Below, in pieces: positions 12,022-34,121 of a stretch of 64,000 nt of DNA (positions are counted from its first letter, which is position 1; every line of letters begins with the position of its first letter). The translations under genes were made by a program, and so were the position numbers. The notes beneath the pieces were generated by a model. That model ran no database searches, had not been told where the DNA came from, and was given only the letters and a program-made list of their open reading frames with translations. Source of the DNA: an uncultured Calditrichaceae bacterium (GTDB lineage: Bacteria; Calditrichota; Calditrichia; RBG-13-44-9; J075); NCBI GenBank assembly GCA_964471235.1, contig CAYYGL010000001.1, positions 5,315 to 69,314 of the forward strand. The letters are read 5' to 3'.

Positions 12022-12810
12022 TTATCTTGCCCGTTGTAAAAAACGCCGGGTAAAGAAATCCGCCGGAATCCCCCGGTTCACTTCCACATTGTAAAATTTC
12101 ATCTCACTGGAGTGCCCGGTCTGTATATCCTTCATCACCATATCGGTCTGGAACCACACCCCGGCAATATTTTCCACCATCGGCACGTCCAGCGTTTTCC
12201 ATTCCCGCAACCCCCGGTCGAAGTAAAGAGATTTCACCGTCACCAGCCGTTCCTGGTCGATCCAGCGGATAATTTTTCCATACCCGGTATCGCGGGCGAT
12301 TTGTTTATCTGCCGGGAGGGATTCGATCCGGTAACACTGCCGCCCGTTCACTGCTTCATCGGGAAGACGTTTGTACGTCCAATCATTCAATTTGGGCTTG
12401 CCGATGTCGTAATAGGTAAAATCGGAGGACATAAAATTGCCACCTTTGCCGCTGGAGGCAATTCGCTTTACCCGCCGCAGCGCCGGTAAGTATAAATATC
12501 GTTCATCATCGCTGTTTTCATGTTCCTTCAACAGAAAAGCGGTGCCTTTCACATCTGCCGGGGCAGTAAAACGCATCAGCATGTCGCTTTCGTTGGGGGT
12601 GCGCTTGCGGCTGTACATTACCATTTTCCGGACCCGACGTTCCCCCCGGGCATTGGTCAAAATCAACTCCACTTCACCCTGCATATCCTGCCAGGTGGTC
12701 TTGTTAAGGGAGCGTTTCATAATCTCGTATCCACTTAATTCCTGGGCAGAAACCGAGTAGACGACCAGAAACAGGATCATGAGAATGCCTCCCCAAAAAA
12801 ATTTTTTCAT
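12022..12810 (-). CDS. LolA-like outer-membrane lipoprotein-sorting family protein
   Basis: Signal peptide, 262 aa. Its start overlaps the RND gene stop (ATGA), and this family is typically paired with COG1033 exporters. Confidence 0.6.
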   Translation of the reverse strand: MKKFFWGGILMILFLVVYSVSAQELSGYEIMKRSLNKTTWQDMQGEVELILTNARGERRVRKMVMYSRKRTPNESDMLMRFTAPADVKGTAFLLKEHENSDDERYLYLPALRRVKRIASSGKGGNFMSSDFTYYDIGKPKLNDWTYKRLPDEAVNGRQCYRIESLPADKQIARDTGYGKIIRWIDQERLVTVKSLYFDRGLREWKTLDVPMVENIAGVWFQTDMVMKDIQTGHSSEMKFYNVEVNRGIPADFFTRRFLQRAR

Positions 12811-15732: not shown

Positions 15733-16785
15733 TTACTCTCTCCGCGCTGGCGGCAAATGCTCCCGGGCGCGGGCTTCCCGTTCCGCCATTTCCTTCACTT
15801 TCCACTGCTTTACTTTTACCTGCTCCTTTATTAACTCCAGCGATTGCAGGAAGATATCTTTGGTGATTTGATCCAGTTGAAAGTCTGCTTCTTCGGTTAA
15901 AAGCGTTTCCAGGGTGATATCGGTAAAATCGGCTATTACCGGTTTATTGTTGGCAGAGGCAAGGTCCTCGATTGCCCCGTTAATCACATTAAATACGATG
16001 TCACTGATGGCTTTTTCCAGGTTGTCGGCAATGATGGACCCGAACACCGGGATCTGGCTGATGGTGTTGATCTCGCGATTTTTATCCACCGCTTCGGCAA
16101 TGCGCCGGTCCACGTATTTTTTAATGTCTTCATGATAAGCGTGATGGGCATCGGCAGACACCTTTTGCACCCGCCGGGCAATCCATTCCACCAGAAATTC
16201 TTTCTGAGGGGAAATCACTTCCCGGAGCACCCGGTTGGTTACCGGGGTGCCGTGCCGAATTTCTTCCTGCACTCCTTCAATGATGTTCACCACTACCCGG
16301 TCGGAGATTTCTTCTACCAGAATGTTGTAGTACTTCACTCCCTTTTCAAAAAGGTAGGTTTTGGTCAAATCGATGATTTGCAGTTTATGTAGTCGAATAA
16401 TGATTGAAATAACCCGCAGAATCCGCAGAAACCGGAAGGAGAGCACCGGAACGCATCCCAACAAATCGTACCAGTGGATGAACGGGTAGAAAAACCAGCG
16501 GTGGTAGATATGGCGCCGGGCGGCGAGAACCCAGCGCAGACTGAATTCCAAAAGAAAAATGATGACAAACCCAAGATCGATAATTAAAAAATTCCGGTGG
16601 ATACGCGTTTCGTAAAAATAATAAAAATCGGGGGTATAGCGGGAAAGGAGATTCTGGAGGGTCTCAGTGATGAATAACCAGTCAAACAGGATTAATCCCA
16701 GGTTAATCATCAGCAAACCCAGCATAAATACATCCAAAATGATAATTTCCACGTTGCGATTCTTCAAAATTTTAGATAGCTTCAT
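15733..16785 (-). CDS. Voltage-sensor-domain (S1-S4) membrane protein with a ~200-aa cytoplasmic C-terminal domain and no pore domain
   Basis: Four N-terminal TM helices carry the canonical VSD signature. This includes the S2 FLLEF charge-transfer Phe/Glu, S3 YDLL, and S4 RFLRILRVISIIIRL with Arg every third residue. No hydrophobic segment follows S4. Confidence 0.55.
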   Translation of the reverse strand: MKLSKILKNRNVEIIILDVFMLGLLMINLGLILFDWLFITETLQNLLSRYTPDFYYFYETRIHRNFLIIDLGFVIIFLLEFSLRWVLAARRHIYHRWFFYPFIHWYDLLGCVPVLSFRFLRILRVISIIIRLHKLQIIDLTKTYLFEKGVKYYNILVEEISDRVVVNIIEGVQEEIRHGTPVTNRVLREVISPQKEFLVEWIARRVQKVSADAHHAYHEDIKKYVDRRIAEAVDKNREINTISQIPVFGSIIADNLEKAISDIVFNVINGAIEDLASANNKPVIADFTDITLETLLTEEADFQLDQITKDIFLQSLELIKEQVKVKQWKVKEMAEREARAREHLPPARRE

Positions 16786-16880
16786 TTTTTATCCTTGATT
16801 AGGGGGTTAAAGGGTTACATATAATTCTATCACAAGTGATAAAAGTAAGTAATCATGTTGATTTCCCTGTCTATCCAAAA

Positions 16881-18302
16881 ATGGTACGGAATATGAAAGA
16901 ATATCAAAAAGTTTTTGAAGCGCAAAAAGCTTTTTTTCAATCCACCGTGCGGCATTCGACTGCCCGGGAGCGAATCGCCAAATTGCGGCGGATAAAATCG
17001 TGGATCTTTGCTCACCAGTCAGAAATTCAGCGGGCGGTATATGAAGATTTCCGAAAAGCCGACGCCGAGGTGGATTTAACGGAGTTGAAACCGGTGCTTA
17101 CGGAAATTGCCCACGCTTCCGCTCATCTTAAGAAATGGATGCGTCCCAAAAGGGTAAAACCAAACCTGCTGTTACTTGGCACCCAATCCTATATCCTCCC
17201 TGAACCAAAAGGAGTGGTGTTAATTTTGGCTCCCTGGAATTTTCCGTTCATGCTAACGGTGGGTCCGTTGGTTTCTGCTATTGCCGCCGGTAATTGTGCA
17301 ATCCTGAAGCCATCGGAGATGACGCCACATACCGCTGAACTTATCAGGAAGATGGTTAGCGATTTATTTGCCCCACAGGAAGTGACCACGTTCTTAGGCG
17401 ACCATCTTGTGGCTCAATCCCTACTAAATTTACCTTTTGATCACATCTTTTTTACCGGCAGCCCGGAAGTGGGTAAGAAAGTGATGAAAGCCGCTGCAAA
17501 CCATTTAAGCTCCGTCACCCTGGAATTAGGCGGGCAAAACCCTACCATCGTGGATGAAAGCGCCGATTTAAAAGATACTGCGGAAAAATTGGTATGGGGA
17601 AAATATTTTAATTGCGGGCAATCCTGTATGGCACCCAATTACACTTTCGTACACGAGAAGGTGCATGACCCTTTACTGGAAGAATTGCGGAAGGCATTTT
17701 CCCGGTTGTATCCGGAAAATAGTAAAAGCATACGGGAAAATGCGGATTTTGCCCGGGTGGTTAACGATCGCCACTTTCGGCGCTTAAGAAAACTAATCAA
17801 TCGTTCGGTAAAAAAAGGCGCAGCCGTCATCATGGGTGGGGAAATGGCAGAAGAAGATTGCTTTATCGCCCCGACCATCCTGGATGATGTGCCCCTGGAT
17901 GCCCCGGTAATGCAGGAAGAAATCTTCGGACCGGTGCTGCCCATCCGAACGTATCAAAATATCGATGAGGTGTTGGAGTTTATCAATCGCGGGGAGAAGC
18001 CGCTGGCACTTTACATTTTTAGCCGGAATCGGAAAAATATTCGCAGAATCGTGAACAGCACCTCCTCCGGAACTGTATGCATCAACGATACCACGGTTCC
18101 CTTTGTGCATCCCAATTTGCCTTTTGGTGGGACAAATTACAGCGGCATCGGGAAAGCGCACGGATATTATGGGTTTATGGCATTCTCCAATGAAAAAGCG
18201 GTGGTGAAACAAAAACGGGGGTTTACCAGCTTAAAATTGGTTTATCCGCCCTATACCAGAACCGTTAAGCGAATGATTCATTGGGTATTAAAATACTTTT
18301 AG
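16881..18302 (+). CDS. Aldehyde dehydrogenase (ALDH3-like, NAD(P)+)
   Basis: APWNFPF, catalytic ELGGQNP and CGQSCMAPNY Cys motif, and GTNYSGIGKAHG. The exact start is uncertain (16836, 16881 or 16896). Confidence 0.85.
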   Translation: MVRNMKEYQKVFEAQKAFFQSTVRHSTARERIAKLRRIKSWIFAHQSEIQRAVYEDFRKADAEVDLTELKPVLTEIAHASAHLKKWMRPKRVKPNLLLLGTQSYILPEPKGVVLILAPWNFPFMLTVGPLVSAIAAGNCAILKPSEMTPHTAELIRKMVSDLFAPQEVTTFLGDHLVAQSLLNLPFDHIFFTGSPEVGKKVMKAAANHLSSVTLELGGQNPTIVDESADLKDTAEKLVWGKYFNCGQSCMAPNYTFVHEKVHDPLLEELRKAFSRLYPENSKSIRENADFARVVNDRHFRRLRKLINRSVKKGAAVIMGGEMAEEDCFIAPTILDDVPLDAPVMQEEIFGPVLPIRTYQNIDEVLEFINRGEKPLALYIFSRNRKNIRRIVNSTSSGTVCINDTTVPFVHPNLPFGGTNYSGIGKAHGYYGFMAFSNEKAVVKQKRGFTSLKLVYPPYTRTVKRMIHWVLKYF

Positions 18303-18311
18303 GAGAAAGAG

Positions 18312-19262
18312 ATGAAATTGGTTGATAATCATACCCGGAACCGGCTGGGCTGTCTCCTGCTGTTCCTGTTGGTTGCTATCGGAATCATCGGTTGTGAACA
18401 TGGACAGAGCAGCGAGAACCATAATACCCCGGCAGATAATGATGCGTTTAAGGACTATTGGTATGCCGGGCTGGCGGAGTTAAATCATTATTCCCTGGAG
18501 CAGGCACGCTACGGTGAAATTCACAAGGGGGATGCCGTGCTGATTTTTGTGACCGAGGACTTTTTGCCGGACCAGCAGGTGAAGTATGAGCATGGTCCAA
18601 AACCGGGCAACACCGAATCGGTCTTAAAATTGAATTTTGTCCGCAAATTTTTCACCGGTATCTACCCATACTCTATGATGAGCTCCATCTTTACCCCGAT
18701 CTCCTCCGCGAATCCCACTCTGAAAGTCAGCACCTCCAGCCAGGAATGGTGCGGGCATACGTACCTGCAATTGAATTACAAAGAACAGCGGTATCAAGGA
18801 TTTCTCCACTCGTATTTTCAGGATGAGGTGTACCGGGAGTATTCGCTGGATGCCGTGGTGTTAGAAGATGCGCTGTGGAATAAAATCCGGATCAATCCCG
18901 GCAGATTGCCGGAAGGGGAGATTCCACTGATTCCCGCCACTCAATTTTTGCGTTTCCGCCATCTGCCTGCAAAAGTTCACCCGGCAATGGCGGTACTAAA
19001 GACCGCTGTTCGGAAAGATATCTCAAGCGATTCCCTCTTTGCCTATCATGTCCGCTATTCGGATATTCAACGGGAGTTGACCATCTACTTCACCCGGGAA
19101 TTTCCGTATGAAATTCTGGGATGGGAAGAAACCTACCCGAGCGGTTTCCGCAACCCCAAATTATTAACCACCCGTGCGGTTCGCACCCACGTGATGCGGC
19201 TGGATTACTGGCGTCGACACTCGGTGGCGGATTCTACCTATCGGAAAGAATTTGGCTTTTGA
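18312..19262 (+). CDS. Hypothetical lipoprotein
   Basis: Signal peptide with lipobox (IIGC), 316 aa. It is tightly linked to the ALDH gene (10-nt gap) and has no recognisable family. Confidence 0.45.
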   Translation: MKLVDNHTRNRLGCLLLFLLVAIGIIGCEHGQSSENHNTPADNDAFKDYWYAGLAELNHYSLEQARYGEIHKGDAVLIFVTEDFLPDQQVKYEHGPKPGNTESVLKLNFVRKFFTGIYPYSMMSSIFTPISSANPTLKVSTSSQEWCGHTYLQLNYKEQRYQGFLHSYFQDEVYREYSLDAVVLEDALWNKIRINPGRLPEGEIPLIPATQFLRFRHLPAKVHPAMAVLKTAVRKDISSDSLFAYHVRYSDIQRELTIYFTREFPYEILGWEETYPSGFRNPKLLTTRAVRTHVMRLDYWRRHSVADSTYRKEFGF

Positions 19263-19396
19263 AGCTGGATGAGACGTAATGTACATAAGCGGATGGAATG
19301 ACGGAAGTTTGAGCAGCAGCATATCTACAGAGGTTCATTCTAAGTATCCGAACAAATAAAAAGGAATTTTACACCCCAATTCCAATTTTGTAAAGT

Positions 19397-19431
19397 GGGG
19401 TTGACAAAAATGTTCATATTTTGTCAACCCC
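19397..19431. repeat. Perfect 13-bp inverted repeat GGGGTTGACAAAA-9nt-TTTTGTCAACCCC between convergent genes (candidate bidirectional terminator or operator)
   Basis: The sequence was read directly. It is nested within a longer imperfect palindrome (ACACCCCA...TGGGGT). Confidence 0.5.
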
Positions 19432-19645
19432 ACCTTACACTTTTTCAGTAGAGAACGCTTTTCGGAATTTACATCAGTCGGTTGCGTTTCAATTTCATGT
19501 AAAATTGTAAGCCCAATCTGTCATGTCGGTTTGTGCTGCTATCAGGCAGGCGATACTGTCACAGAGTGGCTCCGTTGGAGGCTTCTCATTCCGGAGATTC
19601 TTCCAATTTACACAGATTTTCTGATTTTGAGGAAAAGGGAGAAAA

Positions 19646-20335
19646 TTAGGCAACCCCCAGCAGCTCCGGCAATTCCGTCAGCGTGCGAATTTCCGCATCG
19701 GCGTGATAAGGGAGTTGTTCCGGGCGCTGCTGAAAGCGGTTCACCCAGACGACTTTTAACCCGTAGGCTTTTGCCCCGGCAACATCCCAGGCATTGCTGG
19801 AAAGAAACACAATGTCCCGTTTAAATACCTCAAATTCGTCTTCCGCCAGTTGATATACCCTGGGATGGGGTTTAAACACCCGCACTTTTTCCACGGAGAT
19901 AATGGCATCCAGCAGGCTGAACAACTGGCTGTTCTTTACTGCCGCTTCCAGCATTTTCGGGGAGCCGTTGGAGAGAATGGCGGTTTTGATATTCTTTTCT
20001 TTTAAACGCAGCAGTGCTTCCCGTACATCCGAATAACAGGTTAATTTCATGTATGCCTCCATCAACCGGTCAAACAGCTCCGGATTGGATAACCCGACCG
20101 CTCCAAAGGCATATTCCAGTGCTTCTTTGGTGACCTGCCAGAAATCGGCATGCCGCTGCATCAGGCTGCGCAGCCAGGTATATTCCAGTTGTTTGGTACG
20201 CCAGAGTACGGAGACCTGTTCAGCGGCTTCCCCCAGTTGTTCTTTATAGGGCGCCACGGCAGAGTGTACATCAAACAGGGTGCCGTAAGCGTCGAAGACA
20301 CAATATCGGATTCCGAGTAATGTTTTTTGGCTCAC
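19646..20335 (-). CDS. HAD-superfamily hydrolase, type II haloacid dehalogenase-like
   Basis: N-terminal motif I VFDAYGTLFDV, SNG, and a K...D motif, in 229 aa. Confidence 0.7.
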   Translation of the reverse strand: MSQKTLLGIRYCVFDAYGTLFDVHSAVAPYKEQLGEAAEQVSVLWRTKQLEYTWLRSLMQRHADFWQVTKEALEYAFGAVGLSNPELFDRLMEAYMKLTCYSDVREALLRLKEKNIKTAILSNGSPKMLEAAVKNSQLFSLLDAIISVEKVRVFKPHPRVYQLAEDEFEVFKRDIVFLSSNAWDVAGAKAYGLKVVWVNRFQQRPEQLPYHADAEIRTLTELPELLGVA

Positions 20336-20366
20336 AACTCTCTCCTGTGTTTAAAACAATGAAACG

Positions 20367-20849
20367 TTAACCCTGCCAGATGCCCAGGGCACGGCGCAGG
20401 GTAATCAACTGACCGACATGGTAGGCGTTGTGGTCAATCACCAGCAACATCTCCCGTAAATAGGTATACCCTTTGGCGTGGGGTAACTCGGACATGAGGT
20501 CAATTTTCGGATTGGCGGCAATTTCCTGGATCACCTGTAAATCCGAGCGTATTTGCTCGATGGTGGCATTCCAGGCAGCCTGGTCCGCTTCCTGACCCGG
20601 TTTTGGCCAGTAATCGCGGGGCCAGTCCGGAGTGACATAATCAGGATTGCGCATGAAATCGAGAATATCCCACTGGGCAAGGCGGATGTGTTCCAGGAGC
20701 TCCCAGGCAGTGTAGGGAATGCTCTTCACCCGGGCATTATAAAAGTCAGACGGAAAGTCGGCGATAGCCTGCTCAAAGGTCGCGTGGGCATTGGCATCTT
20801 TTAAAAAACTAACCAGAAGATTTCGGAGCACCTGATCGCTTTGTGACAT
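20367..20849 (-). CDS. DinB/YfiT-like (DinB_2/DUF1572-type) four-helix-bundle protein
   Basis: The MSQSD start at 20849 sits directly downstream of uvrA. The C-terminal HNAYHVGQLITLRR resembles the DinB-family His-triad segment. A paralogue lies at 31204-31752. Confidence 0.55.
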   Translation of the reverse strand: MSQSDQVLRNLLVSFLKDANAHATFEQAIADFPSDFYNARVKSIPYTAWELLEHIRLAQWDILDFMRNPDYVTPDWPRDYWPKPGQEADQAAWNATIEQIRSDLQVIQEIAANPKIDLMSELPHAKGYTYLREMLLVIDHNAYHVGQLITLRRALGIWQG

Positions 20850-20946
20850 CCAAATTTCTCCTTTTTTAAATTTTACTCGGATTTTCTTCCCGCTTTTGTG
20901 AAATCCCGGCACCTTTGAGATGTAGCCGCACTCTTTCGGAAACGCA

Positions 20947-23814
20947 TTATGAGGCTTCCTCCAGATCATGGGTTGCCTGATAGGTTAGCCAGTGGTCCAG
21001 TTCCTGTTTGAGAAATTTTCCGGTATAAGAGGTCGGGTGAGCTGCCACTTCCTCGGGCGTTCCTTCCGCCACAATTCGCCCGCCATCGTCACCGCCTTCC
21101 GGTCCCAGGTCAATAATCCAATCTGCCGTCTTGATCACATCCAGGTTGTGCTCAATAACAATCACCGTGTTGCCCTTTTCCACCAGGCGGTTCAGCACCT
21201 CCAGCAGCATCTTGATGTCATCAAAATGCAGCCCGGTGGTCGGTTCATCCAGAATATAAACCGTACGCCCGGTACCCACCAGGGAGAGTTCGGTCGCTAA
21301 CTTTACCCGCTGTGCTTCTCCGCCGCTCAGGGTGGTTGCCCGCTGACCGAGGTGGATGTAGCCCAGGCCCACATCGTGCAGGGTTTGCAATTTCCGCTTA
21401 ATGCTGGGGATTTTATCAAAAAACTCCAGGGCTTCATTGACGGTCATTTCCAGCACATCGGAAATGTTTTTTCCCCGGTATTTGATTTCCAGGGTTTCCC
21501 GGTTGTAGCGTAATCCGTGACACACCTCGCAGGTAATATAGACATCCGGCAGAAAGTGCATCTCGATTTTCTTCACCCCGTCGCCGTCGCAGGCATCGCA
21601 CCGCCCGCCCTTCACATTAAAACTGAACCGCCCCGGTTTGTAACCCCTGATTTTCGATTCCGGCAGCCGGGCAAACAGGTCGCGGATAAAGGTAAACACC
21701 CCGGTATAAGTCGCCGGATTGGAACGGGGCGTACGCCCGATGGGGGATTGATCAATGGCGATAATTTTGTCAACGTATTCCAATCCCTCTACTTTCCTAT
21801 ATTCCAGGGGGATTTTTTTGCTGTTATGTAGATAGGATGCCAGCAGGGGATAGAGGGTGTAATTCACCAGGGTGCTTTTACCGGAACCGGAGACGCCGGT
21901 AATGCAAATGAATTTTCCGAGTGGAAACTTCACCGTGATGTTTTTCAGATTGTTACCCCGGGCACCCTTCAGGGTTAAGAATTGACCGTTCCCTTCCCGC
22001 CGAAAGGGCGGCACCGGGATGTATTTTTTATAAGATAGATATTGCCCGGTGATGGAGCGGGGATTACGGGCAATCTGGCGGGGAGTGCCCTCCGCCACCA
22101 CTTCGCCGCCGTGTTTTCCGGCACCAGGTCCCAAATCGATCACATAATCCGCCGTCTCAATGGTCTCCCGGTCATGTTCCACCACTAAAACGGTGTTGCC
22201 AAGGTCTCGCAATTGCAGGAGTGTGTTGATCAGGCGGGTATTATCCCGCTGGTGTAAACCAATCGAGGGTTCATCCAAAACGTAGAGCACCCCCACCAAC
22301 TGGCTGCCGATCTGGGTTGCCAGGCGTATTCGCTGCGCTTCTCCACCGGATAAGCTGCCGGCAGTGCGATCCAGGGTGAGATATTCCAGACCGACGTTTA
22401 GCAAAAATTTTAACCGGGCTTTAATTTCTTTTAGAATTTGATGAGCAATGGTTTTTTCCTGGCGACTCAACTTTAAGGAATCAAAAAATTCAAAGGCGTT
22501 TTTGATATTTTTCGCGGTCACTTCTGCGATGTTCAAACCGGCAACTTTTACCCCTAATGCCTCTTTTCGCAGCCGGGCGCCGTGGCATTCCGGGCAGGGG
22601 ATTTCGTTCATGAATCCTTCTATCCAGGTACGGATATGTTGAGAAGCGGTCTGCCGATACCGCCGGTAAAGATTGTTGATGACCCCTTCAAAATTGGATG
22701 AAAATTCGAATTTGGAGCGTTCCCGTTGAAACCGAAAGGTAATTTTTTTACTACCCGTACCATACAGGATGATCTTTTTGATTTCTTCCGGTAATTTTTT
22801 CCAGGGAGTATTCAGGCTGAAGCCGAATTCTCGCGAGAGAGCCTCGATCATCTCGAAATACCAACTGGCGCGCTGAACCCCCACCGGTTGGATGGCGCCC
22901 TGATTGATGCTGAGATTGGGGTTGGGCACCACAAGCCGGGGATCTATTTCCAGCTTGAAACCCAGCCCGTCGCAGTTGGGGCAGGCGCCGTAAGGGCTGT
23001 TAAAGGAAAACATGCGCGGCTCCATCTCCTCATAACTGATATTGCAGCGCTGGCAGGAAAAGTGTTCGCTGAATAACTGTTCCTCGGCTGCGTCAATGTT
23101 ATCCAGAATCACCAGTCCGCTGCTCATCTTCAGGGCAATTTCTATCGATTCATTGAGCCGCTGACGAATTTTCGGGTGAATCTTCAAACGGTCAACAACC
23201 ACTTCAATGTTATGTTTGATTTTTTTGTTAAGCCGGATGTCATCCTCGATGCTGAACAATTTGCCGTCCACCCGCACCCGCACAAAACCTTCTCGTTTTA
23301 TCTCCTCGAACAAATCCCGGTATTCCCCCTTACGCCCCCGAACCACCGGGGCTAAAATTTGCACCCGGGTGTCTTCCGGAAGCTGCAAAATGGTATCGAC
23401 AATTTGTTGAGGAGTCTGGCGAGAAATGGGGTTTCCGCAATTGTAGCAATGGGGTTTTCCGATGCGGGCATATAGCAAGCGCAGGTAGTCATAGATTTCC
23501 GTAACCGTTGCCACCGTGGACCGGGGATTTCGATGGGTGGTTTTTTGCTCAATGGAGATTGCCGGGGACAGCCCATCAATGTAATCCACATCCGGTTTTT
23601 CCATTAATCCTAAAAATTGGCGGGCATAGGCGCTTAACGATTCCACATAACGGCGCTGTCCTTCCGCATAAATGGTATCAAACGCCAGACTGGATTTGCC
23701 CGACCCCGACAGACCGGTAATCACCACAAACTTCTGCCGGGGTATCCGAACGTCGATATTCTTTAAGTTATGTTCTCTCGCCCCTTTGACGATTAAAAAT
23801 TCTTTCTTACCCAT
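20947..23814 (-). CDS. uvrA: Excinuclease ABC subunit A
   Basis: 955 aa with two ABC ATPase modules ([12 protein letters not shown] and [11 protein letters not shown] Walker A; LSGGEAQR signatures twice) and zinc-finger CxxC pairs. Confidence 0.97.
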
Positions 23815-24124
23815 ACTGCCTTTCCATGAGTGTTATCACTTCATTTAAAAATGGACCGGGAGGATGTCACCATCTCTCGCCATCAATTTACCTCCCTCAA
23901 TTAAAGCGCTATTTGTGTGTGCCTATCGGCACCAGCACATGTGCTGCCTTAGTGAACATTGATGCACGCCAAATATAGAGGATTAATGGGAAAACAGCAA
24001 CCGCAATTTGAATGAAGATTTTGAGAATCCGACCCCATTTCGGAAAAACCTGTGGTAACTATTCAGAAGGCAGACCATAAAGAGTTCCTGTATAAAGATG
24101 CATCTGTAATCAACAGTGTCTTTT

Positions 24125-24210
24125 TACCGCAATGATAGCAGCGGAGACGCGACGGCGGCCGCAACGGGAAAGAGACAAACATCTGTTCGTTGCGAACGTT
24201 GCGGTATAAC
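24125..24210. repeat. MITE/REP-like intergenic repeat, copy B
   Basis: See copy A. It lies in the uvrA–methyltransferase intergenic region. Confidence 0.6.
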
Positions 24211-24342
24211 ACCCTGAATCCCTACAACTTGTGAAAAGGGGAGAAGGGTTCCGGTTGGTGCCCATTTTGGGTTCCGGATTAATTTTCTTTTCGATTTTTG
24301 ATAGCATCTGCTTAACTTGCTCGCAAGGCATGATGTTATCGA

Positions 24343-24987
24343 ATGACTACAGTGGATATTGAGATGACAATTCAGGATGCCTACGACAGGTGGTCAATTA
24401 CGTACGACAGCGATAGAAACCGCACCCGCGACCTGGATGGCGAGGTTACCCGGAAGGTTTTGGGAAAGATGCGCTTCGAGCGGATTCTGGAAATTGGCTG
24501 CGGCACCGGAAAAAACACTGCTTTTCTATCCGGGATCAGCACATCGGTGCTGGCGTTGGATTTTTCGGAGAAAATGCTGAAGAAGGCAAAGCAGAAGAAA
24601 TTTGCCGGTGAGGTCACATTTGCCAGGGCAGACATTACCCAACCGTGGCAGATAGCGCAAAATATGTTCGATTTGATCTCCTGCAACCTGGTACTGGAAC
24701 ACATCGAAGACCTCACGTTTATCTTCTCCGAGGCAGCCCGGGTTTTAAAAGCCCCGGGATATTTCTTTATTTCCGAATTACATCCATTCCGGCAATACCA
24801 GGGCACCCAGGCAAATTTTAAAAACACCCAAGAAACGGTTGTGATACCGGCGTTCGTTCATCATATCTCGGAATTTTTAGGAGCTGCCATCCATGCCGGC
24901 TTTACCCTGATCGACTTACAGGAATGGTGGCATGAAGAAGATGCCGGCAAACCGCCCCGACTGTTGACCCTTTTGTTTGATAAATGA
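24343..24987 (+). CDS. Class I SAM-dependent methyltransferase
   Basis: ILEIGCGTGKNT motif I and an acidic motif II (ALDFSE), in 214 aa. Confidence 0.75.
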   Translation: MTTVDIEMTIQDAYDRWSITYDSDRNRTRDLDGEVTRKVLGKMRFERILEIGCGTGKNTAFLSGISTSVLALDFSEKMLKKAKQKKFAGEVTFARADITQPWQIAQNMFDLISCNLVLEHIEDLTFIFSEAARVLKAPGYFFISELHPFRQYQGTQANFKNTQETVVIPAFVHHISEFLGAAIHAGFTLIDLQEWWHEEDAGKPPRLLTLLFDK

Positions 24988-25010
24988 TATTCCAAATACT
25001 CTCCCCCTGT

Positions 25011-25130
25011 CCCACTGTCTCCCTGTCTTACTGTTCCACTGCCTTACTGCCCCACTGTCTTACTGTCTCCCTGTCGCACTGCCTTACTGCCTCACTGTCT
25101 TACTGTCCCACCGCCTCACTATCCCTCTCC
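25011..25130. repeat. Imperfect 40-bp tandem repeat x3 within a ~200-bp pyrimidine-rich, G-poor tract upstream of hpnC-like gene
   Basis: Units CCCACTGTCTCCCTGTCTTACTGTTCCACTGCCTTACTGC, CCCACTGTCTTACTGTCTCCCTGTCGCACTGCCTTACTGC and CTCACTGTCTTACTGTCCCACCGCCTCACTATCCCTCTCC. There are about 17 G in 200 nt. Confidence 0.6.
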
Positions 25131-25240
25131 CAAATCCCAATTTCACCATTTCCTCCCATCCCCCAATAATCATCCCAACTCCACCGCTTTATCTTCTATA
25201 ATTCACCTTTGAGAAGATAAAAAATCGAAGTATCTTTAAT

Positions 25241-26134
25241 TTGATGGAAGATATTAAGGAATTTGAAATGCTTTCGGTAAATACCGGGGCTGATATAGAA
25301 GCGGCGTACCGGGCATGCCGGAGGATTACCGAGACGCATTATGAGAATTTTCCGGTGGCGTCCCGATTGTTACCGGCGGGGGTACGGAAGCACATCTACC
25401 CGATTTATGCGTTTGCCCGCTATGCAGATGACCTGGCAGATGAGTACCGGGATGAAGAAGGGTTATTGCACTGGCGGGAAAAGCTGTATCGCTGTGTGAA
25501 TGAACCGGTTGACCACCCGATTTTCCTTGCCCTCGCTGACACCATTCACAAGAAAAATATTCCGGTGGCGTTGCTGGATGACCTTCTGTCGGCGTTTCTC
25601 CAGGATTTAACCAAAAACCGCTATCAGGATCTCACCGAGTTGCTTCACTACTGCCGGTTTTCCGCCAACCCGGTGGGACGGATTATTTTGCTGCTTCATG
25701 GCTATGGGGATGAATCCCTGATGCAACTCTCCGATATCATTTGCTCTGCCCTGCAACTGACCAATTTCTGGCAGGATATCAGCATTGATATTCACAAAGA
25801 TCGCTTATATATCCCCCTGAGCTATCTGGACAAATATGGGATAACGGAAGGTGAAATTTTTTCCGGGCGAACATCACACAATTTTCGACGTTTAATGTCC
25901 GAACTGGTCAGGGAAACCCGGCAAATGTATCGGAAGGGTTCCGGATTGTTGACTCATATCCGGGGAAGGCTGCGCTGGGAGTTGTATTTTACCATTGCCG
26001 GCGGGAAGCGGGTACTGGATAAAATTCAGCGGATAGATTACAATGTGTTGGATCAGCGGGTAAAATTGACGAAAAGAGACTGGCTCGTTCTCCTGATCCG
26101 TGGAGCGATTAAAAAAAAGAGGCGTTATGAATGA
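25241..26134 (+). CDS. hpnC: Squalene/phytoene synthase family enzyme, HpnC-like (first of two tandem paralogues)
   Basis: YENFPVAS, YAFARYADDLADE (first Asp-rich motif) and a second Asp-rich region. The assignment to hpnC rather than hpnD is by gene order and is uncertain. Confidence 0.7.
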   Translation: MMEDIKEFEMLSVNTGADIEAAYRACRRITETHYENFPVASRLLPAGVRKHIYPIYAFARYADDLADEYRDEEGLLHWREKLYRCVNEPVDHPIFLALADTIHKKNIPVALLDDLLSAFLQDLTKNRYQDLTELLHYCRFSANPVGRIILLLHGYGDESLMQLSDIICSALQLTNFWQDISIDIHKDRLYIPLSYLDKYGITEGEIFSGRTSHNFRRLMSELVRETRQMYRKGSGLLTHIRGRLRWELYFTIAGGKRVLDKIQRIDYNVLDQRVKLTKRDWLVLLIRGAIKKKRRYE

Positions 26135-26990
26135 AACAGTTTTAGACCCGGCGCTTACCCGGGAGAGCAAAAGTAGCTTTTTGTACTCCTTTTTTCTGTT
26201 ACCCAAAGAGAAACGTCGGGCAATCTACACACTTTATGCGTTTTGTCGTCAAACCGATGATATTGTTGACAACAACAACAGTCCCCTGGAAAAACGGCTC
26301 TGGTTGTTGAACCGCTGGGAAAAAGAGCTAAAGCGATGCTTTCTGAATCAGGTTTCCAACTACTTCGATTCCCTGCATCAGGTTGCCGAAGTTTTTAAAA
26401 TCCCATTTGAGTATTTTCTGGAGTTAATCGCCGGGGTACGGATGGATTTGACCGAAATCGGCTTTCGGTCTTTTGAAGACCTGAAACTGTATTGTTACCG
26501 GGTGGCTTCCATTGTTGGTTTAATGAGTATTGAAATTTTCGGTTACCGGGACCCCCAGATTAAACAATATGCGGAGAACCTGGGAATTGCCCTGCAGTTG
26601 ACCAATATCATCCGGGATGTCGGGGCGGATGCCCGGTTGGGGCGAATCTATATTCCCGAGGAAGACCTGGAACGATTTGCAGTGACAAAAGCCGAGATCA
26701 TGAATAAACGCTATAGCGACCGGTTTTATCAACTGATGAGTTTTCAATCCCGGCGGGCACGCAAGTATTACCAACTGGCAGAAGCGTATCTGCCCGGTTC
26801 GGAAAAGCTGAACATGCTGGTTTCCGAAATCATGAAAAACATTTACTGGCGCTTGTTAAACAAAATTGAAGCGGAACAATACAAAGTGCTGGATAGACGA
26901 CTATCGGTCTCCACCACTTCAAAAGTCTGGATTACCCTCCGCACGGTTTCCAAAATTAAGTTGGATAAAATGTTAGGAGAAGTCAGCTAA
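26100..26990 (+). CDS. hpnD: Squalene/phytoene synthase family enzyme, HpnD/CrtB-like (second tandem paralogue)
   Basis: YAFCRQTDDIVD and NIIRDVGADARLGRIYIPEED Asp-rich motifs. Its start overlaps the upstream paralogue by 35 nt. Confidence 0.7.
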   Translation: MERLKKRGVMNETVLDPALTRESKSSFLYSFFLLPKEKRRAIYTLYAFCRQTDDIVDNNNSPLEKRLWLLNRWEKELKRCFLNQVSNYFDSLHQVAEVFKIPFEYFLELIAGVRMDLTEIGFRSFEDLKLYCYRVASIVGLMSIEIFGYRDPQIKQYAENLGIALQLTNIIRDVGADARLGRIYIPEEDLERFAVTKAEIMNKRYSDRFYQLMSFQSRRARKYYQLAEAYLPGSEKLNMLVSEIMKNIYWRLLNKIEAEQYKVLDRRLSVSTTSKVWITLRTVSKIKLDKMLGEVS

Positions 26991-26991
26991 G

Positions 26992-28326
26992 ATGGCATCC
27001 GGTCGGGTGTTAATAGTCGGGGGAGGCGTTGCCGGCATCAGTGCCGCGGTTGCCGCCATCCGGAAAGGGCTGCAGCCGGTGTTGGTGGAAAAGAATCGTA
27101 CCCTGGGCGGCAGAGCCCGTTCCCTGTACGCCCGGGATATCCGCCGCACCATTGACAATGGGCAGCATGCCCTCTCCTACAATTATCAGCACACCCGCTG
27201 GTTATTGGCCACTCTGAATTCTCTTGAACGGATCCATTTTCAAAAGCGGCTGGAAATCCGTTTTTACCTGTCGCATCACCGTCGAATCCACTTTCGGGTC
27301 TGGAATTTACCGGTACCGTTTCATCTGCTCCTTCCGCTGTTTCTTCTTCTCCCCCTGACCCCGGCAGACCGAAAATTTTTGGTGCGCTGGGGGTGGATGA
27401 ACCGAAATCTGTCTGAATATCAACTGAAATCCATGACGGCAAGGGAATGGCTATACCAGGCAGGAGATGCCCCGGTGTTGGAACAAGTATTCTGGACGCC
27501 CCTGACGCTGGCAGCGCTGAACACGCCAATCGAAAACGCCAGCGCCCTTCTGCTGTACCGTGCGTTGCGGCAGGGATTTTTAAGCGGAGCTGCCCGGAGC
27601 GGTTTGGGGTTGCCGACAGATATGCTTGGTGAAATTTTTGCCAACCCTGCCGCACAGTTTATCCGCTCCCGGGGCGGATAGGTATTAACCGGCACTGCGA
27701 TAAAAAAAATAAATTCCGCCAACGGCAGAGTGGTTAGCGCCACAACCGGGCAGGGGAAAGTGCTAAACGCCAGGCACTTCGTTCTGGCAACCTCCCCCTC
27801 CGCCCTGGTAAAAATTCTTCACCGGAGTGAGACAGGGGAGGAAAAATGGTGGAAACCGTTTTCTAAATTCCAATATTCCCCGATTATTACCATAAATTTT
27901 TGGACCCGGGAGCCGCTTCCCGCCGGACCCCCCATTGCCCTGGTAAATTCGCCATTGCAGTGGATATTTCCAATACCCAACCACGATAAACCCGGAGAAG
28001 GATATGGCTATACCGGGGTTATCAGCGCCGCATTCCGTGAAGTAGATTGGGGAAGAGAAACACTATTGGAGATGATAGACCGGGAGTTTGTTCGGTTTTT
28101 TAAACGAAGCCTGGTAACGGATTTCCACCTGATCGAGAGCAAAATTATCAAAGAAAAAACCGCCACCATCCTGCAAACACCGGATTCGCTACGATTGCGC
28201 CCCGGCGGAGTCACGCCTTATCCCAATCTGGTATTGGCAGGAGATTGGCTGGATACCGGTCTGCCGGCAACTATCGAAAGTGCGGTGCAAAGCGGCAGAG
28301 AGGCAATTGATAAATTAACCGCATGA
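26992..28326 (+). pseudogene. hpnE: HpnE-like FAD-dependent amine-oxidase family oxidoreductase (hydroxysqualene dehydroxylase-like) interrupted by a single in-frame TAG at 27679-27681
   Basis: N-terminal dinucleotide fold VLIVGGGVAGISAA...VEKNRTLGGRARS. The reading frame continues unchanged through the TAG (…FIRSRGG*VLTGTAIKKINSANGRVVSATTGQ…) to 28326. Combined length is ~445 aa, as expected for HpnE. Confidence 0.7.
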
Positions 28327-28361
28327 TGGATACACCGGATCAAACACAAAAGGGGCACTTG

Positions 28362-29405
28362 ATGCCAATGGTTCAACTTAACATTCGCCTGTATGTCTAT
28401 TTTATGCTGATGCTGCCTGTTCTTGCGGCATGTGGCAAGGAGCCTCCGGCGGAGACTGTTCCGCTACCGGAAGGGAAACACTACTACCTGGGCGTAATCG
28501 CAAAGAATCTTGCCATTCAGATGGAATTATCATTTACCGATTCCACCGTTACCGGTAGTTACTATTATGAAAAGAATGGGACCGCAATACCCTTAACCGG
28601 CAAAATTGCAAAAGATGGAACGATTTTGTTGAAAGAATACGGCAAGGCTGACCAAATCACCGGGGAATTTAAGGGCAAGCCGGATGTAGCAACCAGGAAA
28701 ATTCGCGGTGCCTGGACCGGGAAAGAGAACGGAAAACGGCTAAGGTTTCAGTTAACGGAAGTAGCCGGTTATGTTTCGAGTGAAATGAAAGAGGACAACA
28801 TCACCGTCACAGCTAGTTATCCCCGGTTTCATTCCACTGCCGAATCCTTTCAACAACTGAACCGTCTGCTGCGAGATTCCGTTTCCCGGGAACAGCAGGA
28901 TTTTATCAACACCGGAAAAGAATATCTACAGCCGGAAGACCCGATGTATGAGATAGGGTGGCAGAAAGAGATTGATTATTCCATTAAGTATTACTCGGAG
29001 ACGCTGGTCAGCATATTGGAAACGGTTTCGGAATATACCGGCGGTGCTCATGGAAATTTAACCTATCGGTCTTTCAATTATCACATAACGCAAGATAAAC
29101 CGGTGCCGGTGAAGTTAACCGATTTGATTGTGCCGGAAGAACGTGGTATGGCGGTATTGTCGGAGAACTGTTTGCAGCAATTGCGAAAAAAAGGAGCCAG
29201 TGAAGTTACCGGTGGCAGGATACGGCAATTCAGGCCGGAGGACTTAAGCGCATTTACTTTAAATCCCGCCGGGATCACCATTTATTTTGCCCCTTATTCG
29301 GTGGCGTCTTATGCCGAGGGCACCTTTACAGTGCTGATACCTTATCAGGAGCTCAAAGATATCATTAAAACGAAGAGTCCGGTGGATGCTTTTATCAAAC
29401 GGTGA
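28362..29405 (+). CDS. DUF3298/DUF4163-family lipoprotein (RsiV/PdaC C-terminal-domain-like)
   Basis: Lipobox LAAC. The EYTGGAHGN segment matches the conserved GGAHG motif of DUF3298. The start is uncertain (28323-28368). Confidence 0.55.
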   Translation: MPMVQLNIRLYVYFMLMLPVLAACGKEPPAETVPLPEGKHYYLGVIAKNLAIQMELSFTDSTVTGSYYYEKNGTAIPLTGKIAKDGTILLKEYGKADQITGEFKGKPDVATRKIRGAWTGKENGKRLRFQLTEVAGYVSSEMKEDNITVTASYPRFHSTAESFQQLNRLLRDSVSREQQDFINTGKEYLQPEDPMYEIGWQKEIDYSIKYYSETLVSILETVSEYTGGAHGNLTYRSFNYHITQDKPVPVKLTDLIVPEERGMAVLSENCLQQLRKKGASEVTGGRIRQFRPEDLSAFTLNPAGITIYFAPYSVASYAEGTFTVLIPYQELKDIIKTKSPVDAFIKR

Positions 29406-29414
29406 GTGCGGCCG

Positions 29415-29747
29415 CTATTCGTTAAAATGTTGCAGCAGCATTATCGAACATTCCGGTTGAAAAATATTTAACGGGGTAAAAAGGATGATGTCGGATTTAC
29501 GTTTCACGGTTTTACGTCGCTCTAACAACGCATTGTAACGTGGGTCCAAAATTATCATTCGCCAGGCATGTTCAACGGCGGTCAGGTTGATGATGATGTT
29601 GTTTTTCAGATAGTCTTCGTAGCGTCTGCCCACTAACCGACGACGTTCCATTTGCGATCTCCTGACATCCTTGATAGCTTTGTTTAACATCCGATTCCGT
29701 TCGGATTTGCGGTGGTTAAGTTGTGTCGATACTGCTGAGTGTAACAA
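29415..29747 (-). CDS. Small basic hypothetical protein (110 aa)
   Basis: It is the only non-overlapping ORF in the 460-bp gap between two plus-strand genes. It is Arg/Lys rich with no recognised family. Confidence 0.25.
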   Translation of the reverse strand: MLHSAVSTQLNHRKSERNRMLNKAIKDVRRSQMERRRLVGRRYEDYLKNNIIINLTAVEHAWRMIILDPRYNALLERRKTVKRKSDIILFTPLNIFQPECSIMLLQHFNE

Positions 29748-29868
29748 ATGGTCCTCCCATATAGTTTAGAAATGCCCGACCCCCTAATAAACAATATTTC
29801 GGCAGCAAAGAGGTGTTCAATATCAATTTCGGAAGATAAAAATACAAAAAATTGGGGAGAAAAAGAAG

Positions 29869-31056
29869 ATGCCTGACAAGAAAATAACCGATTTTCCATT
29901 ACAGGAGACTTGTAAGACGGTTTTCCCGAAGGTGTTGCATTTCCGGGAAATGCTGCATCGCTACCCGGAATTGGGCTGGCAGGAGTATGAGACCACCCGG
30001 AGAATCCGGGAAATATTGCATGATCACGGCATCGAATCTTTTTCCACTCCCATGGAGACCGGTGGGGTGGTGGACTTTCAATTTCATGAAAACCGACCCT
30101 ACCTGTTGTTACGAGCGGATATTGATGCCTTGCCGATAACCGATGAGAAACGTGTTTCTTACCAATCGCAGAATTCGGGGGTGTGCCATGCCTGCGGGCA
30201 TGATGTGCATACCGCGGTTGTCGTTGGGGTTGCCCTGTGTTTGCAGGAGCTGTCGGAAAAACCGCCGTTGAATGTTCGGCTGGTATTCCAGCCGGCGGAA
30301 GAACCGATTCCCAGCGGGGCACCGAAAATGGTGGAAGCAGGGGTGCTAAAAAACGTGAAATACGCCCTGGGGATGCATGTGGACCCACGGTTTCCGGTGG
30401 GAACAATCGTTTTAACCCCGGGGTGGGTAAATATGCAGAGCATCCGGTTGGATCTGACCCTGAAGGGACCGGGTGGGCACTCGTCACGCCCCCAGGATAC
30501 CGCCGATTTGCTCTGGATTGCCAGCCGGATTATACAAGATGGATACCAATTGGTATATCGCACCGTCAACCTGCTGGATTCCGATGTAATCCTTACTTTC
30601 ACGGAAATTGAAGCTCGTCAGGGGTATAACGTCATCCCGCGATGGTTAACCATGTCCGGCACCTTGCGCCTGGCGGATGCCGAAAAGAAACAACGGTTTC
30701 TGGATAAATTCCGACGCTACCTTCATTTTTTGGCGGAAGAATCCGGCTGTCAAATTCACCTGAAAATCCAGGAGGGTGCACCAGCGATTTATAATGATCC
30801 CAACTTAACCGAAATGCTGCAAAAGAACCTCTCCCGAAATTTCGAGATTCCGGTAACCCTAAATACTACCTACCGTACACCGGGCGCCGATGATTTCAGT
30901 TATTACAGCCAGGCTGTTCCCGGTGTTATGGTTCGTTTCGGCACCTCCGGTGAGGAACCGGCTCCCGGTCTGCATGAGGGATTATTTGACGTACCGCAGG
31001 AGGTCATTAGAATTGCCATGATGTTTTTTTTACACCAGGTTTATCACCTCAGGTAA
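29869..31056 (+). CDS. M20D-family amidohydrolase (N-acyl-amino-acid amidohydrolase / hippuricase-like)
   Basis: VCHACGHDVH metal-binding motif and QPAEE, in 395 aa. Confidence 0.8.
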   Translation: MPDKKITDFPLQETCKTVFPKVLHFREMLHRYPELGWQEYETTRRIREILHDHGIESFSTPMETGGVVDFQFHENRPYLLLRADIDALPITDEKRVSYQSQNSGVCHACGHDVHTAVVVGVALCLQELSEKPPLNVRLVFQPAEEPIPSGAPKMVEAGVLKNVKYALGMHVDPRFPVGTIVLTPGWVNMQSIRLDLTLKGPGGHSSRPQDTADLLWIASRIIQDGYQLVYRTVNLLDSDVILTFTEIEARQGYNVIPRWLTMSGTLRLADAEKKQRFLDKFRRYLHFLAEESGCQIHLKIQEGAPAIYNDPNLTEMLQKNLSRNFEIPVTLNTTYRTPGADDFSYYSQAVPGVMVRFGTSGEEPAPGLHEGLFDVPQEVIRIAMMFFLHQVYHLR

Positions 31057-31203
31057 GGGAAGAATGGTGGGAAAGTGATTGAGTGCATTTCACAATGTGT
31101 CTGCATTGCAACTGTCTCACCGAACACCCTCCCACTGAATGCTGCATTACTGATCACTGATTATCACACCATGCAATCATTGCAGTTTGGTTACGGAACT
31201 CAC

Positions 31204-31752
31204 CTATTCCTCACTTTCGTCTAAATATTTTCCCGGGTTGCGATTAAAATCCTCGGATTTGCCTTTTGGAATACTCAACGACTCCCAGGCGTCGCCGGTA
31301 AAGTGTTTCGCCAGGAAAACGATTTGTCCCACATGGTAAGCATAGTGAGAGAGCTGTCGAAGCAGCGCCTGGCTAACCAACAGCGGCTCCCCGCGAATGG
31401 TGATGGTACGGCTTAAATCCGCTGGCGTCAATGTTTCCAGGGTATTGGTTAGAATTTGCCATCCGGTTTCCCATTGCTTATGGAGGTTGTTAAAATCATC
31501 ATCTTGGGTAATTTCAAACTCCATATCCCGGTGACGATCCGGCTTCTCACCGTCGGTAGTAAGAAAATCGCGCCAGCGGGATCGCATATTGCCGGCAAGG
31601 TGTTTCATGATCACCGCAATCGAATTGGATACCTCCTCATTCAGGGAGTCGAACATCTCTTCAGTGTTTACCTGGGATATCGCTCCATCTGCCAGTTGAC
31701 GCAGCCGGGAAAATTCCCGACGAATATCGGTTAAGAATTGCTCCAGATTCAT
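31204..31752 (-). CDS. DinB-like/DUF1572 family protein, translationally coupled to the upstream helicase
   Basis: HYAYHVGQIVFL C-terminal motif, as in the 20367 paralogue. Its ATG overlaps the helicase TGA (ATGA) at 31749-31752. Confidence 0.55.
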   Translation of the reverse strand: MNLEQFLTDIRREFSRLRQLADGAISQVNTEEMFDSLNEEVSNSIAVIMKHLAGNMRSRWRDFLTTDGEKPDRHRDMEFEITQDDDFNNLHKQWETGWQILTNTLETLTPADLSRTITIRGEPLLVSQALLRQLSHYAYHVGQIVFLAKHFTGDAWESLSIPKGKSEDFNRNPGKYLDESEE

Positions 31753-34121
31753 ATTTTACCTCCGGTTGGTTTGTCGATAACGGGCAGGGATTTCCGTTTG
31801 TGCAGGGGCACTCCCTGCGAGTGAAATATCGTTATCTGTTGTGTATTGAATTCCAGCAAATAGTGTTGAATGATTAATTCCGCAAGATGTTGAATTCTTT
31901 CCACATCGGAAAAAGTGTTGATAGTCAACTGTTCCGGTAGGGCATAAATTTTTTGCCCGTCGGCTTTTAATATTTTTGGCAAAATCTCCGGATGGATAAT
32001 GAGATGATACAACTGCTGGGCAGATTTAAAGCGCAGTGTTTCCAGGTAAAGGCGATCCCAATCCACCACATCCCAGATATCTTTGTTGACAGCGACCGGT
32101 TTTGCACGGGATACTCCGGAGTTTCCTACTCCCTCTGATGTGATTTGTGAAAAAACCGGACGGATATCAACCCGGAGCTTTTTCAGGATGTTATTGTTCA
32201 CGGAAACTTCTACTGCCGGTGCGTTCCCGTTTTCTGAAGAAACAGGTGGTGTTATTGCCGGCTCCAAAGCAGGTGTGGAGGATGTGCCGGGTCGATCCGT
32301 TCGCTTATCTCTTCCGTTTGTCTGAATCCCTTCTTTGACAATGGCGTTCAAAAAGGCGTTCATATAATCTGCGTTCAGTCCGTAAATATAAAGTGTTTGT
32401 AAGCAGGCGATTTCCGGGCGGGCAGTGGCTTCTCTCCTCAGAGAAAAATCTTTTCCTTTCAGGCGAACCCCTCTACCGAATAGCTGAATAATCTGGGGAC
32501 CTTCTCCTTTTCCCATGTTCATCAATACCATGGTCGAGACCCGCCAGCTATTCCACCCTTCGATAAATTTTTTTGCACCGATAAGCAGGTTGATGGGAGA
32601 ACGGGCAGTATTGATATCCTCAAACAGGGAGGCGGAAAAGTAATCCGGTTTCACCTCGATTCCATTGCTTGCCAGCAGTTTTTTGAGCGGCGCAACATTT
32701 CCAACATGGATAATGCCGAAATAATTCCCGGCTCCGTTGGTTTTCAATCCTAATTCTCCATCGCCATGTAAAATTTCGTAAACTTCAAGTTCCCCGCTCC
32801 CATGAAATACCAGCCGGAATAACTTCTCCTGTTGTGCCTGCCGATCATCCGCTGGGGAATTAAGCAAGTCACCCACAGGGAGATTTGCCGGTATCGCCGA
32901 TAGAATCCATTGGATGTGTTCCCATAATCGCCCCGGATCATGAAGAATTTTTTTCGGGGACATCGTGATTGAGAGGATGTCGGAATCCTGCTTTTTTCCC
33001 GCCACCCGGCTGCCCACAAACACCCAGAGAGGTTTCTCAAGCTGGTAAGTGTTTATATCGATTTCTCCGGACTGAAAAAGGGAAAGCTGCCGGTAAAAGG
33101 TTGACAGTGCCCCGGACAGCACCCCCTGTTGCACTTCCGGTGTGTAGTGATCTTTATGAAGGTTCACCGCCTGGAACGCCTTGCCATACCTGTCTTCATA
33201 GAAAAAACGGTAAGAAAAATCAAAAATAATGGATTTGGCATATTCCGAGAGTAGAAAGCTATTCTTGCCGATTACCTGGGCAAAAGTAGCACTGTATTCG
33301 ATAATTATGCCCTGGGTTGCCAGTTTTTCCCGCAGGGTCTTCCAGCGTTTTTCCTCGGATTTCTGCCCCTTATGCCCCTCATCGATGAAAATGAGGTTTT
33401 TCCCTTCAAAAGCCGCGACATCCACCCTTACCCCGCCGGAAAGTTTTTGGTCCATCAACTTGTGAATGTCGATGACCAATACCTCATTTCGGCGGGTATA
33501 AAGGTTGTCCGGGTTGCCGTCATATAACTTTGCTGGTATGCCGCTCAGTTGATACTCCTGCCAGTGTTGACGGGACATACCTTCGTTTGGGGTGATCAGC
33601 AAAATATTATCCCAGGTGAAAGGGGTATAGTGCAGCACCTGCCAGTAGTTGATGTGCATAATCAAAGTTTTACCGCTGCCGGTTGCCATCCAGTAGGCAA
33701 TTTTGTGTAGGTCCGGTTCATGAAATGGCGGAATTGACTGCGAATGACGTCGATTAAATTCTTCTAAAAACAAATTTAAGTCGGATAAAAAGCCGGAGAC
33801 ATCGGTAAACAACCGGTCAAAATAGATTTCGCTGAACAGGGCTGCCAACTGCTGGAAGTATTTCAATCGGAATTGGGGTTGTTGACGATTGGCGCGCAGA
33901 CGGGATTGGTAGGAGTCAATCGATTGTTGGTAGTTGAATAATTTTTCCGGTGATAGTTTAGAACGCCCGCTTTGTTGTAAAGCATCCCAGAACGTATCAT
34001 GGAACTTAACGGATGAAACAGGGGAGGGGAGAGGGAGTATTGCTCTCAGGCGAGCAAACTCATCCACCCCGAGTAAATCCAGGAAAAAATGAAACAGGAC
34101 CAGGTGTTTTTGTAATTTCAT
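31749..34121 (-). CDS. SF2 helicase, ResIII-type (type III restriction Res-subunit-like) with DEGH box
   Basis: Motif I WMATGSGKT, motif II IFIDEGH, motif III YSATF, and motif VI QLFGRGVRL. It has a ~145-aa N-terminal and ~240-aa C-terminal extension without an obvious PD-(D/E)xK motif. Confidence 0.75.
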   Translation of the reverse strand: MKLQKHLVLFHFFLDLLGVDEFARLRAILPLPSPVSSVKFHDTFWDALQQSGRSKLSPEKLFNYQQSIDSYQSRLRANRQQPQFRLKYFQQLAALFSEIYFDRLFTDVSGFLSDLNLFLEEFNRRHSQSIPPFHEPDLHKIAYWMATGSGKTLIMHINYWQVLHYTPFTWDNILLITPNEGMSRQHWQEYQLSGIPAKLYDGNPDNLYTRRNEVLVIDIHKLMDQKLSGGVRVDVAAFEGKNLIFIDEGHKGQKSEEKRWKTLREKLATQGIIIEYSATFAQVIGKNSFLLSEYAKSIIFDFSYRFFYEDRYGKAFQAVNLHKDHYTPEVQQGVLSGALSTFYRQLSLFQSGEIDINTYQLEKPLWVFVGSRVAGKKQDSDILSITMSPKKILHDPGRLWEHIQWILSAIPANLPVGDLLNSPADDRQAQQEKLFRLVFHGSGELEVYEILHGDGELGLKTNGAGNYFGIIHVGNVAPLKKLLASNGIEVKPDYFSASLFEDINTARSPINLLIGAKKFIEGWNSWRVSTMVLMNMGKGEGPQIIQLFGRGVRLKGKDFSLRREATARPEIACLQTLYIYGLNADYMNAFLNAIVKEGIQTNGRDKRTDRPGTSSTPALEPAITPPVSSENGNAPAVEVSVNNNILKKLRVDIRPVFSQITSEGVGNSGVSRAKPVAVNKDIWDVVDWDRLYLETLRFKSAQQLYHLIIHPEILPKILKADGQKIYALPEQLTINTFSDVERIQHLAELIIQHYLLEFNTQQITIFHSQGVPLHKRKSLPVIDKPTGGKI

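Follow-up and report, generated by a model that had tools for sequence, protein, structure and literature searches.

The third gene of an hpnC-hpnD-hpnE squalene cluster carries a single in-frame TAG in the 64-kb stretch of DNA analysed here (the window). We give somewhat better than even odds (a probability of about 0.55) to this stop being genuine, as a G>T nonsense allele of hpnE that arose very recently and is probably segregating. The features of the region are as follows.

25268-26134, plus strand: hpnC, hydroxysqualene synthase, intact (TIGR03464; Pfam SQS_PSY 3-262 of 263)
26127-26990, plus strand: hpnD, presqualene diphosphate synthase, intact (TIGR03465)
26992-27678, plus strand: 5' part of hpnE, codons 1-229, with the N-terminal FAD-binding GxGxxG Rossmann segment (Pfam NAD_binding_8, PF13450)
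27679-27681, plus strand: in-frame TAG, codon 230 of hpnE; GAG (Glu) in the closest relative
27682-28326, plus strand: 3' part of hpnE, codons 231-444 and the TGA, fully HpnE-like, with the conserved C-terminal motif LAGDWLDTGLPATIESAVQSG
28323-29405, plus strand: PdaC/DUF3298 protein gene, 3' of hpnE (Pfam PF13739 and PF11738); the start of its longest possible frame and the hpnE stop overlap (ATGA)
27663-27718, no strand: gap between near-identical contigs of assembly ERZ27262647; 56 nt that include the TAG; no other uncovered stretch was found

Translation of positions 26992-28326 gave a single frame of 444 sense codons with one internal stop and no frameshift, ending at a TGA (28324-28326). 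The internal stop falls after two glycines (...AAQFIRSRGG*VLTGTAIKK...), and a listing of ORFs cuts the gene there into a 229-aa ORF (26992-27681) and a 198-aa ORF starting at GTG 27730. When the two parts were joined with an X at the stop, the product scored 348.5 bits on the NCBIfam equivalog model for HpnE (TIGR03467, cut-off 283.05), with residues 6-443 aligned to positions 1-429 of the 430 in the profile. The Pfam Amino_oxidase profile (PF01593) likewise falls on both halves, positions 1-179 on the 5' part and 219-438 of 443 on the 3' part. The initial annotation, made from the letters, had described one in-frame TAG inside this gene without a frameshift; the translation and the full-length TIGR03467 match confirm it. 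The encoded protein thus has the flavin amine-oxidase fold, the N-terminal dinucleotide-binding motif and the C-terminal FAD-contact motif of an HpnE; what it lacks is an uninterrupted frame of about 440 codons giving a functional enzyme. As sequenced, hpnE is a pseudogene or a null allele rather than a functional member of its family, to be annotated as a pseudogene or a possible sequencing error.

A search of a 5.8-billion-protein collection returned 309 matches, 120 of them listed. None of the 120 listed matches is split at the position of the TAG: 118 are uninterrupted proteins of 423-729 residues, and the other two are a protein of 414 aa and a 314-aa fragment. The window protein was aligned with 19 homologues taken from these matches, and all 19 run uninterrupted through the stop position. 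This column comes right after two nearly invariant glycines and is occupied by Glu in 9 of the 19, the most frequent residue, and otherwise by Ser, Thr, Asp, Lys or Asn. Forty-one columns of the alignment are invariant, among them G10, G12, G15, G39-R41, G417-W419 and T422-S434. The window hpnE retains every one, including the 20 that lie in its 3' part, where LAGDWLDTGLPATIESAVQSG is found. The best named matches, among those listed, are proteins of Calditrichota MAGs at 38-50% identity; the closest relative among them all (P0001) shares 88% amino acid identity with hpnE. Its gene is found on a Logan contig of 4.6 kb (L001), which agrees with the window in gene order and, with only four gaps, aligns to it at 85.6% nucleotide identity; the two codons concerned are GGG GAG on L001 and GGA TAG in the window. 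The stop is therefore explained by one G>T transversion in a Glu codon. Comparison of the orthologous codon in relatives, which had been proposed as a check, has thus given a sense codon in the closest relative and in all aligned homologues. The GAG and the uninterrupted homologues exclude the possibility, also raised at the outset, that orthologues naturally end here and that the downstream ORF is a separate gene. Two neighbouring genes sharing a frame by chance are likewise ruled out, by the 19 uninterrupted homologues and by the lack of any split protein among the 120 listed.

The hpnC and hpnD genes adjoin hpnE and are intact. Each passes the threshold of the equivalog model for its own family and scores better there than on its sister's model: hpnC reached 302.4 bits on the HpnC model TIGR03464 (cut-off 250.45) versus 165.1 on the HpnD model, and hpnD 292.7 bits on the HpnD model TIGR03465 (cut-off 278.6) versus 167.5 on the HpnC model. 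The first assignment of two synthase paralogues and an amine-oxidase flavoprotein to HpnC, HpnD and HpnE is therefore borne out by curated models, and so is the claim that both synthases are intact. The hpnC gene is called, with 288 aa, on contigs L002 and L006, and the exact 287-aa product of hpnD is recorded in two other assemblies. Although the longest ORF of hpnC begins at TTG 25241, the gene is called from ATG 25268 on the ENA contig identical in sequence. With this start, hpnC and hpnD overlap by 8 nt, and hpnE starts 1 nt past the hpnD stop. The PdaC/DUF3298 gene follows hpnE in the same order at the orthologous locus on L001. It is probably co-transcribed with hpnE, and so may suffer polarity from the premature stop. 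A scan of the hpn cluster for promoters and terminators gave counts no higher than expected by chance, and the large ORFs scanned in the window included neither a squalene-hopene cyclase nor a further hpn gene. The three genes form an HpnCDE squalene operon of the standard type, and for a biosynthetic gene to carry one premature stop is ordinary and calls for no new mechanism.

The age of the lesion can be judged from the sequence on its 3' side. hpnE is 1335 nt long both in the window and on L001, with no indel. Between these two sequences, dN/dS ratios were calculated by the Nei-Gojobori method (dS about 0.5), with the following results.

hpnE codons 1-229: dN/dS 0.11
hpnE codons 231-444: dN/dS 0.155
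downstream PdaC-like gene: dN/dS 0.168
M20 peptidase gene: dN/dS 0.147
hpnD: dN/dS 0.018

The ratios of the two hpnE halves are close to the 0.15-0.17 of neighbouring genes. Purifying selection has acted on the part 3' of the stop over practically the whole divergence from L001. An old, decaying pseudogene is ruled out, as there is a single lesion, the length is that of the orthologue, and dN/dS is hardly different downstream and upstream of the stop. Given the absence of indels and the purifying selection on the 3' part, the stop, if real, must be very recent. By the same token, the strong purifying selection on both halves implies that the lineage needed HpnE until very recently, which counts against a real null allele.

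Whether the T at 27679 is real at all is the main question, and here independent assemblies are informative. Exact-protein look-ups of neighbouring genes led to contigs of the same organism, about 5-14 kb long, in ENA assembly ERZ27262647 (MEGAHIT, k141_* names) and in Logan run SRR7968113. One contig (L002) corresponds to positions 15911-27662 of the window with 1 mismatch in 11,752 nt, and another (L003, ENA) corresponds to positions 27719-33002. All of them stop short of the TAG: L002 and L006 end at 27662 and L007 at 27409, while L003 begins at 27719. Taking one break per 5-14 kb, we estimate roughly that the chance of such a gap hitting a given codon is below 1%. A break of ERZ27262647 exactly at the TAG means that this spot is either variable in the population or poorly resolved and hard to assemble. 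No sequence across the TAG was found in genome contigs by protein-based and DNA-pattern scans, nor in JGI metagenome contigs by DNA-pattern scans, and no exact record of the 229-aa or 198-aa half-product exists in any assembly looked up. With no independent sequence across 27663-27718, the T at 27679 rests on one assembly. A literature search with the sample accessions found no papers.

Two observations argue for variation in the population. Position 27663, where coverage first fails, is the synonymous third base of its codon, and L001 differs there as well; a haplotype bubble would produce just such a pattern. Further along, L003 and a Logan contig from SRR7968113 (L004) match the window perfectly up to 32955 and then show 8 SNPs within 34 nt (32956-32989); L003 ends at 33002 and L004 at 33000, about 10 nt past this cluster. 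Such a cluster is direct evidence of co-occurring haplotypes, or of a recombination tract. It lies in an ORF on the minus strand (31749-34121) for a ResIII/DEAD helicase-like protein of 790 aa. If the TAG likewise lies in a stretch where co-occurring strains differ, the assembled sequence represents one haplotype of a mixed population.

The same break is open to another reading, namely that the organism has a sense codon here, GAG or some other, that the T arose as a consensus error or through a chimeric path, and that hpnE is intact and functional. The contig break equally fits low local coverage or an unresolved region of the graph, where bridging by an assembler can lead to a false base call or to a chimeric path. 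G>T changes, moreover, are the typical oxidative-damage error of short-read libraries. That an independent assembly of the same population fails precisely around this codon, that the rest of hpnE is without decay and keeps all invariant residues of the family, and that other assemblies hold no gene product ending at this TAG are all as expected of an artefact. However, the window agrees with independent contigs elsewhere at 99.98-99.99%, so that the general base-error rate is very low, and a priori true nonsense polymorphisms should be met more often than substitution errors that by chance produce a stop. We regard an assembly or sequencing artefact as a possible but doubtful explanation. Were it correct, hpnE should be annotated as intact. 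In either case the base call at the TAG, coinciding as it does with an independent contig break, is not to be trusted without reads.

A second lesion in the window provides a calibration for this question.

58843-59996, minus strand: sat (ATP sulfurylase), frameshifted, with the Pfam ATP-sulfurylase domain split over two ORFs

Positions 2-60 of the ATP-sulfurylase profile fall in ORF 58953-59996, and positions 53-211 in an overlapping ORF in another frame (58843-59379). The lesion, at CTGGTGGCAGAACC, looks like the loss of one G from GTGGGC, near 59335. An independent MEGAHIT contig from ENA (L005), which differs from the window by 2 mismatches and no gaps over 8,811 nt, encodes the same truncated sat product of 347 aa. 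The sat frameshift is therefore real at the read level, which speaks against a window prone to artefacts, and being real it indicates that fresh inactivations by a single lesion do occur in this lineage. A Pfam analysis of five overlapping same-strand ORF pairs revealed no other hidden frameshift; the domains found belonged to different, complete families. The neighbours of sat look intact, on one side cysC (APS kinase, 60952-61608) and on the other a permease of the CitMHS family (PF03600, 56838-58619).

We return to the reading of a true nonsense allele, for which the following course of events is proposed. In the assembled haplotype, a single G>T transversion would have changed codon 230 of hpnE from GAG (Glu) to TAG. 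Translation would end after 229 residues, with loss of the substrate-binding part and of the C-terminal FAD-contact motif, and owing to this double loss the allele would be null. Cells carrying it would be expected to pile up hydroxysqualene instead of squalene by the HpnCDE route. The mutation would be very recent and is probably not fixed; we infer that it segregates with the sense allele.

The stop would be without consequence if the TAG were decoded, by a suppressor tRNA, by near-cognate readthrough or by recoding, for example with pyrrolysine, so that full-length HpnE was still made. Three points agree with this. The stop column is variable in the family, so that HpnE would tolerate nearly any residue put in there; both halves of hpnE are under purifying selection; and low-level natural readthrough of UAG occurs in bacteria. 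We scanned the six frames of the window for places where one stop separates two open segments that each span 100 codons or more. Four cases were found, all at TAG, and hpnE is the only genuine split gene among them. An aldehyde dehydrogenase gene and a lipoprotein-like gene are separate genes, the second having its own Met and a signal-like N-terminus. A PHP protein gene and sat are likewise separate neighbouring genes; both these pairs are on the coding strand, and the fourth pair lies in a non-coding antisense frame. TAG serves as an ordinary stop in the window: in a greedy gene map, 48 long ORFs end with TAA (23), TGA (19) or TAG (6), and the superoxide dismutase ORF, which ends at a TAG, does so 3 residues past the end of the Pfam profile. 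With no other gene split by TAG in the window and other genes ending normally at this codon, genome-wide recoding of TAG is rejected. The GAG of the closest orthologue indicates that the position is not conserved as a stop, which also argues against a programmed event. Within the 64-kb window the sole tRNA (Rfam) is a tRNA-Arg(TCG), and no tRNA with a CUA anticodon and no pyl genes were found; RNA folding 3' of the stop was no better than in shuffled controls (z = -0.82). Decoding of this TAG is accordingly very improbable.

A functional split enzyme was also considered, in which the 229-aa N-terminal piece and a separately initiated 198-aa piece would associate into an active HpnE. An ORF with a GTG start is indeed present 48 nt past the stop, at 27730. 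However, a restart there would cost the conserved fold 16 residues, no convincing ribosome-binding site could be seen in front of it on direct reading, none of the 120 listed homologues is split at this place, and look-ups found no called protein corresponding to either half. We find this arrangement hardly credible. Positive support is absent for readthrough or recoding as well as for the split enzyme. Of the three causes first offered for the TAG, stop-codon suppression is thus left without support, while a nonsense mutation, as the favoured cause, and an assembly error, as the doubtful one, both stay.

One variant of the nonsense-allele reading goes further. The TAG allele might be real and kept in part of the natural population, defining a sub-lineage with the last squalene step switched off while HpnC and HpnD stay constrained. 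The end product would then be hydroxysqualene or a derivative of it, or else a trickle of HpnE would be supplied by low-level UAG readthrough at this residue-tolerant position. Maintenance of this kind seems to us very unlikely. If it did apply, a natural truncation of the pathway would be in progress in an uncultured, probably Calditrichota-related lineage.

In the squalene route concerned, HpnD joins two molecules of farnesyl diphosphate into presqualene diphosphate, HpnC turns this into hydroxysqualene, and the FAD enzyme HpnE reduces hydroxysqualene to squalene. The pathway was reportedly first described in Zymomonas mobilis and Rhodopseudomonas palustris. The window resembles it in passing the thresholds of TIGR03464, TIGR03465 and TIGR03467 and in having the order hpnC-hpnD-hpnE with overlapping or abutting genes. 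Unlike the characterised examples, it has a TAG at codon 230 of hpnE, and its lineage is distant from theirs. In Methylobacterium extorquens PA1, deletion of hpnE abolishes hopanoids and squalene-derived carotenoids, and hydroxysqualene accumulates (bioRxiv 10.1101/2020.12.21.423902). By analogy, loss of HpnE with HpnC and HpnD intact, as in the window, would be expected to have the same outcome. The M. extorquens result, however, comes from a constructed deletion and measured lipids, whereas the window offers a candidate point mutation in an uncultured organism known from sequence alone. The irregular distribution of hpnC, hpnD and hpnE in bacteria has been attributed mostly to gene loss (Santana-Molina et al. 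2020, PMC7306690). A newly arisen nonsense allele would mark the start of a loss of this kind, but in contrast to an eroded cluster, the window hpnE is complete but for one base and shows no relaxed selection.

If the stop is real, the strain cannot make squalene via HpnCDE, and anyone predicting hopanoids or squalene for it because the cluster is present would be mistaken. Taken with the sat frameshift, the hpnE stop makes a strain-level look worthwhile before metabolic conclusions are drawn from the consensus.

Several other features of the window were recorded. Between a methyltransferase gene (24343-24987) and hpnC lies a tandem array (25007-25120) of an 8-nt unit, CTGTCTCA, in about 14 copies with 69% matches, which can alternatively be described by a 40-nt period. 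Spurious ORFs with an 'LSHCLPV' repeat stem from this array. About 10 kb upstream of the hpn genes, a pair of genes on the minus strand encodes an RND-type transporter with MMPL and sterol-sensing domains (12807-15170; PF03176, PF02460, PF12349) and, near it, a DUF1302 protein (10635-11924). On the same strand, a HEPN domain protein gene (52752-53156) overlaps one for a Pol-beta-type nucleotidyltransferase (53140-53499), an arrangement matching a HEPN/MNT toxin-antitoxin pair. Also on the minus strand, 43095-45806 encodes a large N6/N4 DNA methylase of 903 aa (PF01555); this gene and the helicase-like one at 31749-34121 may be restriction-modification or defence genes.
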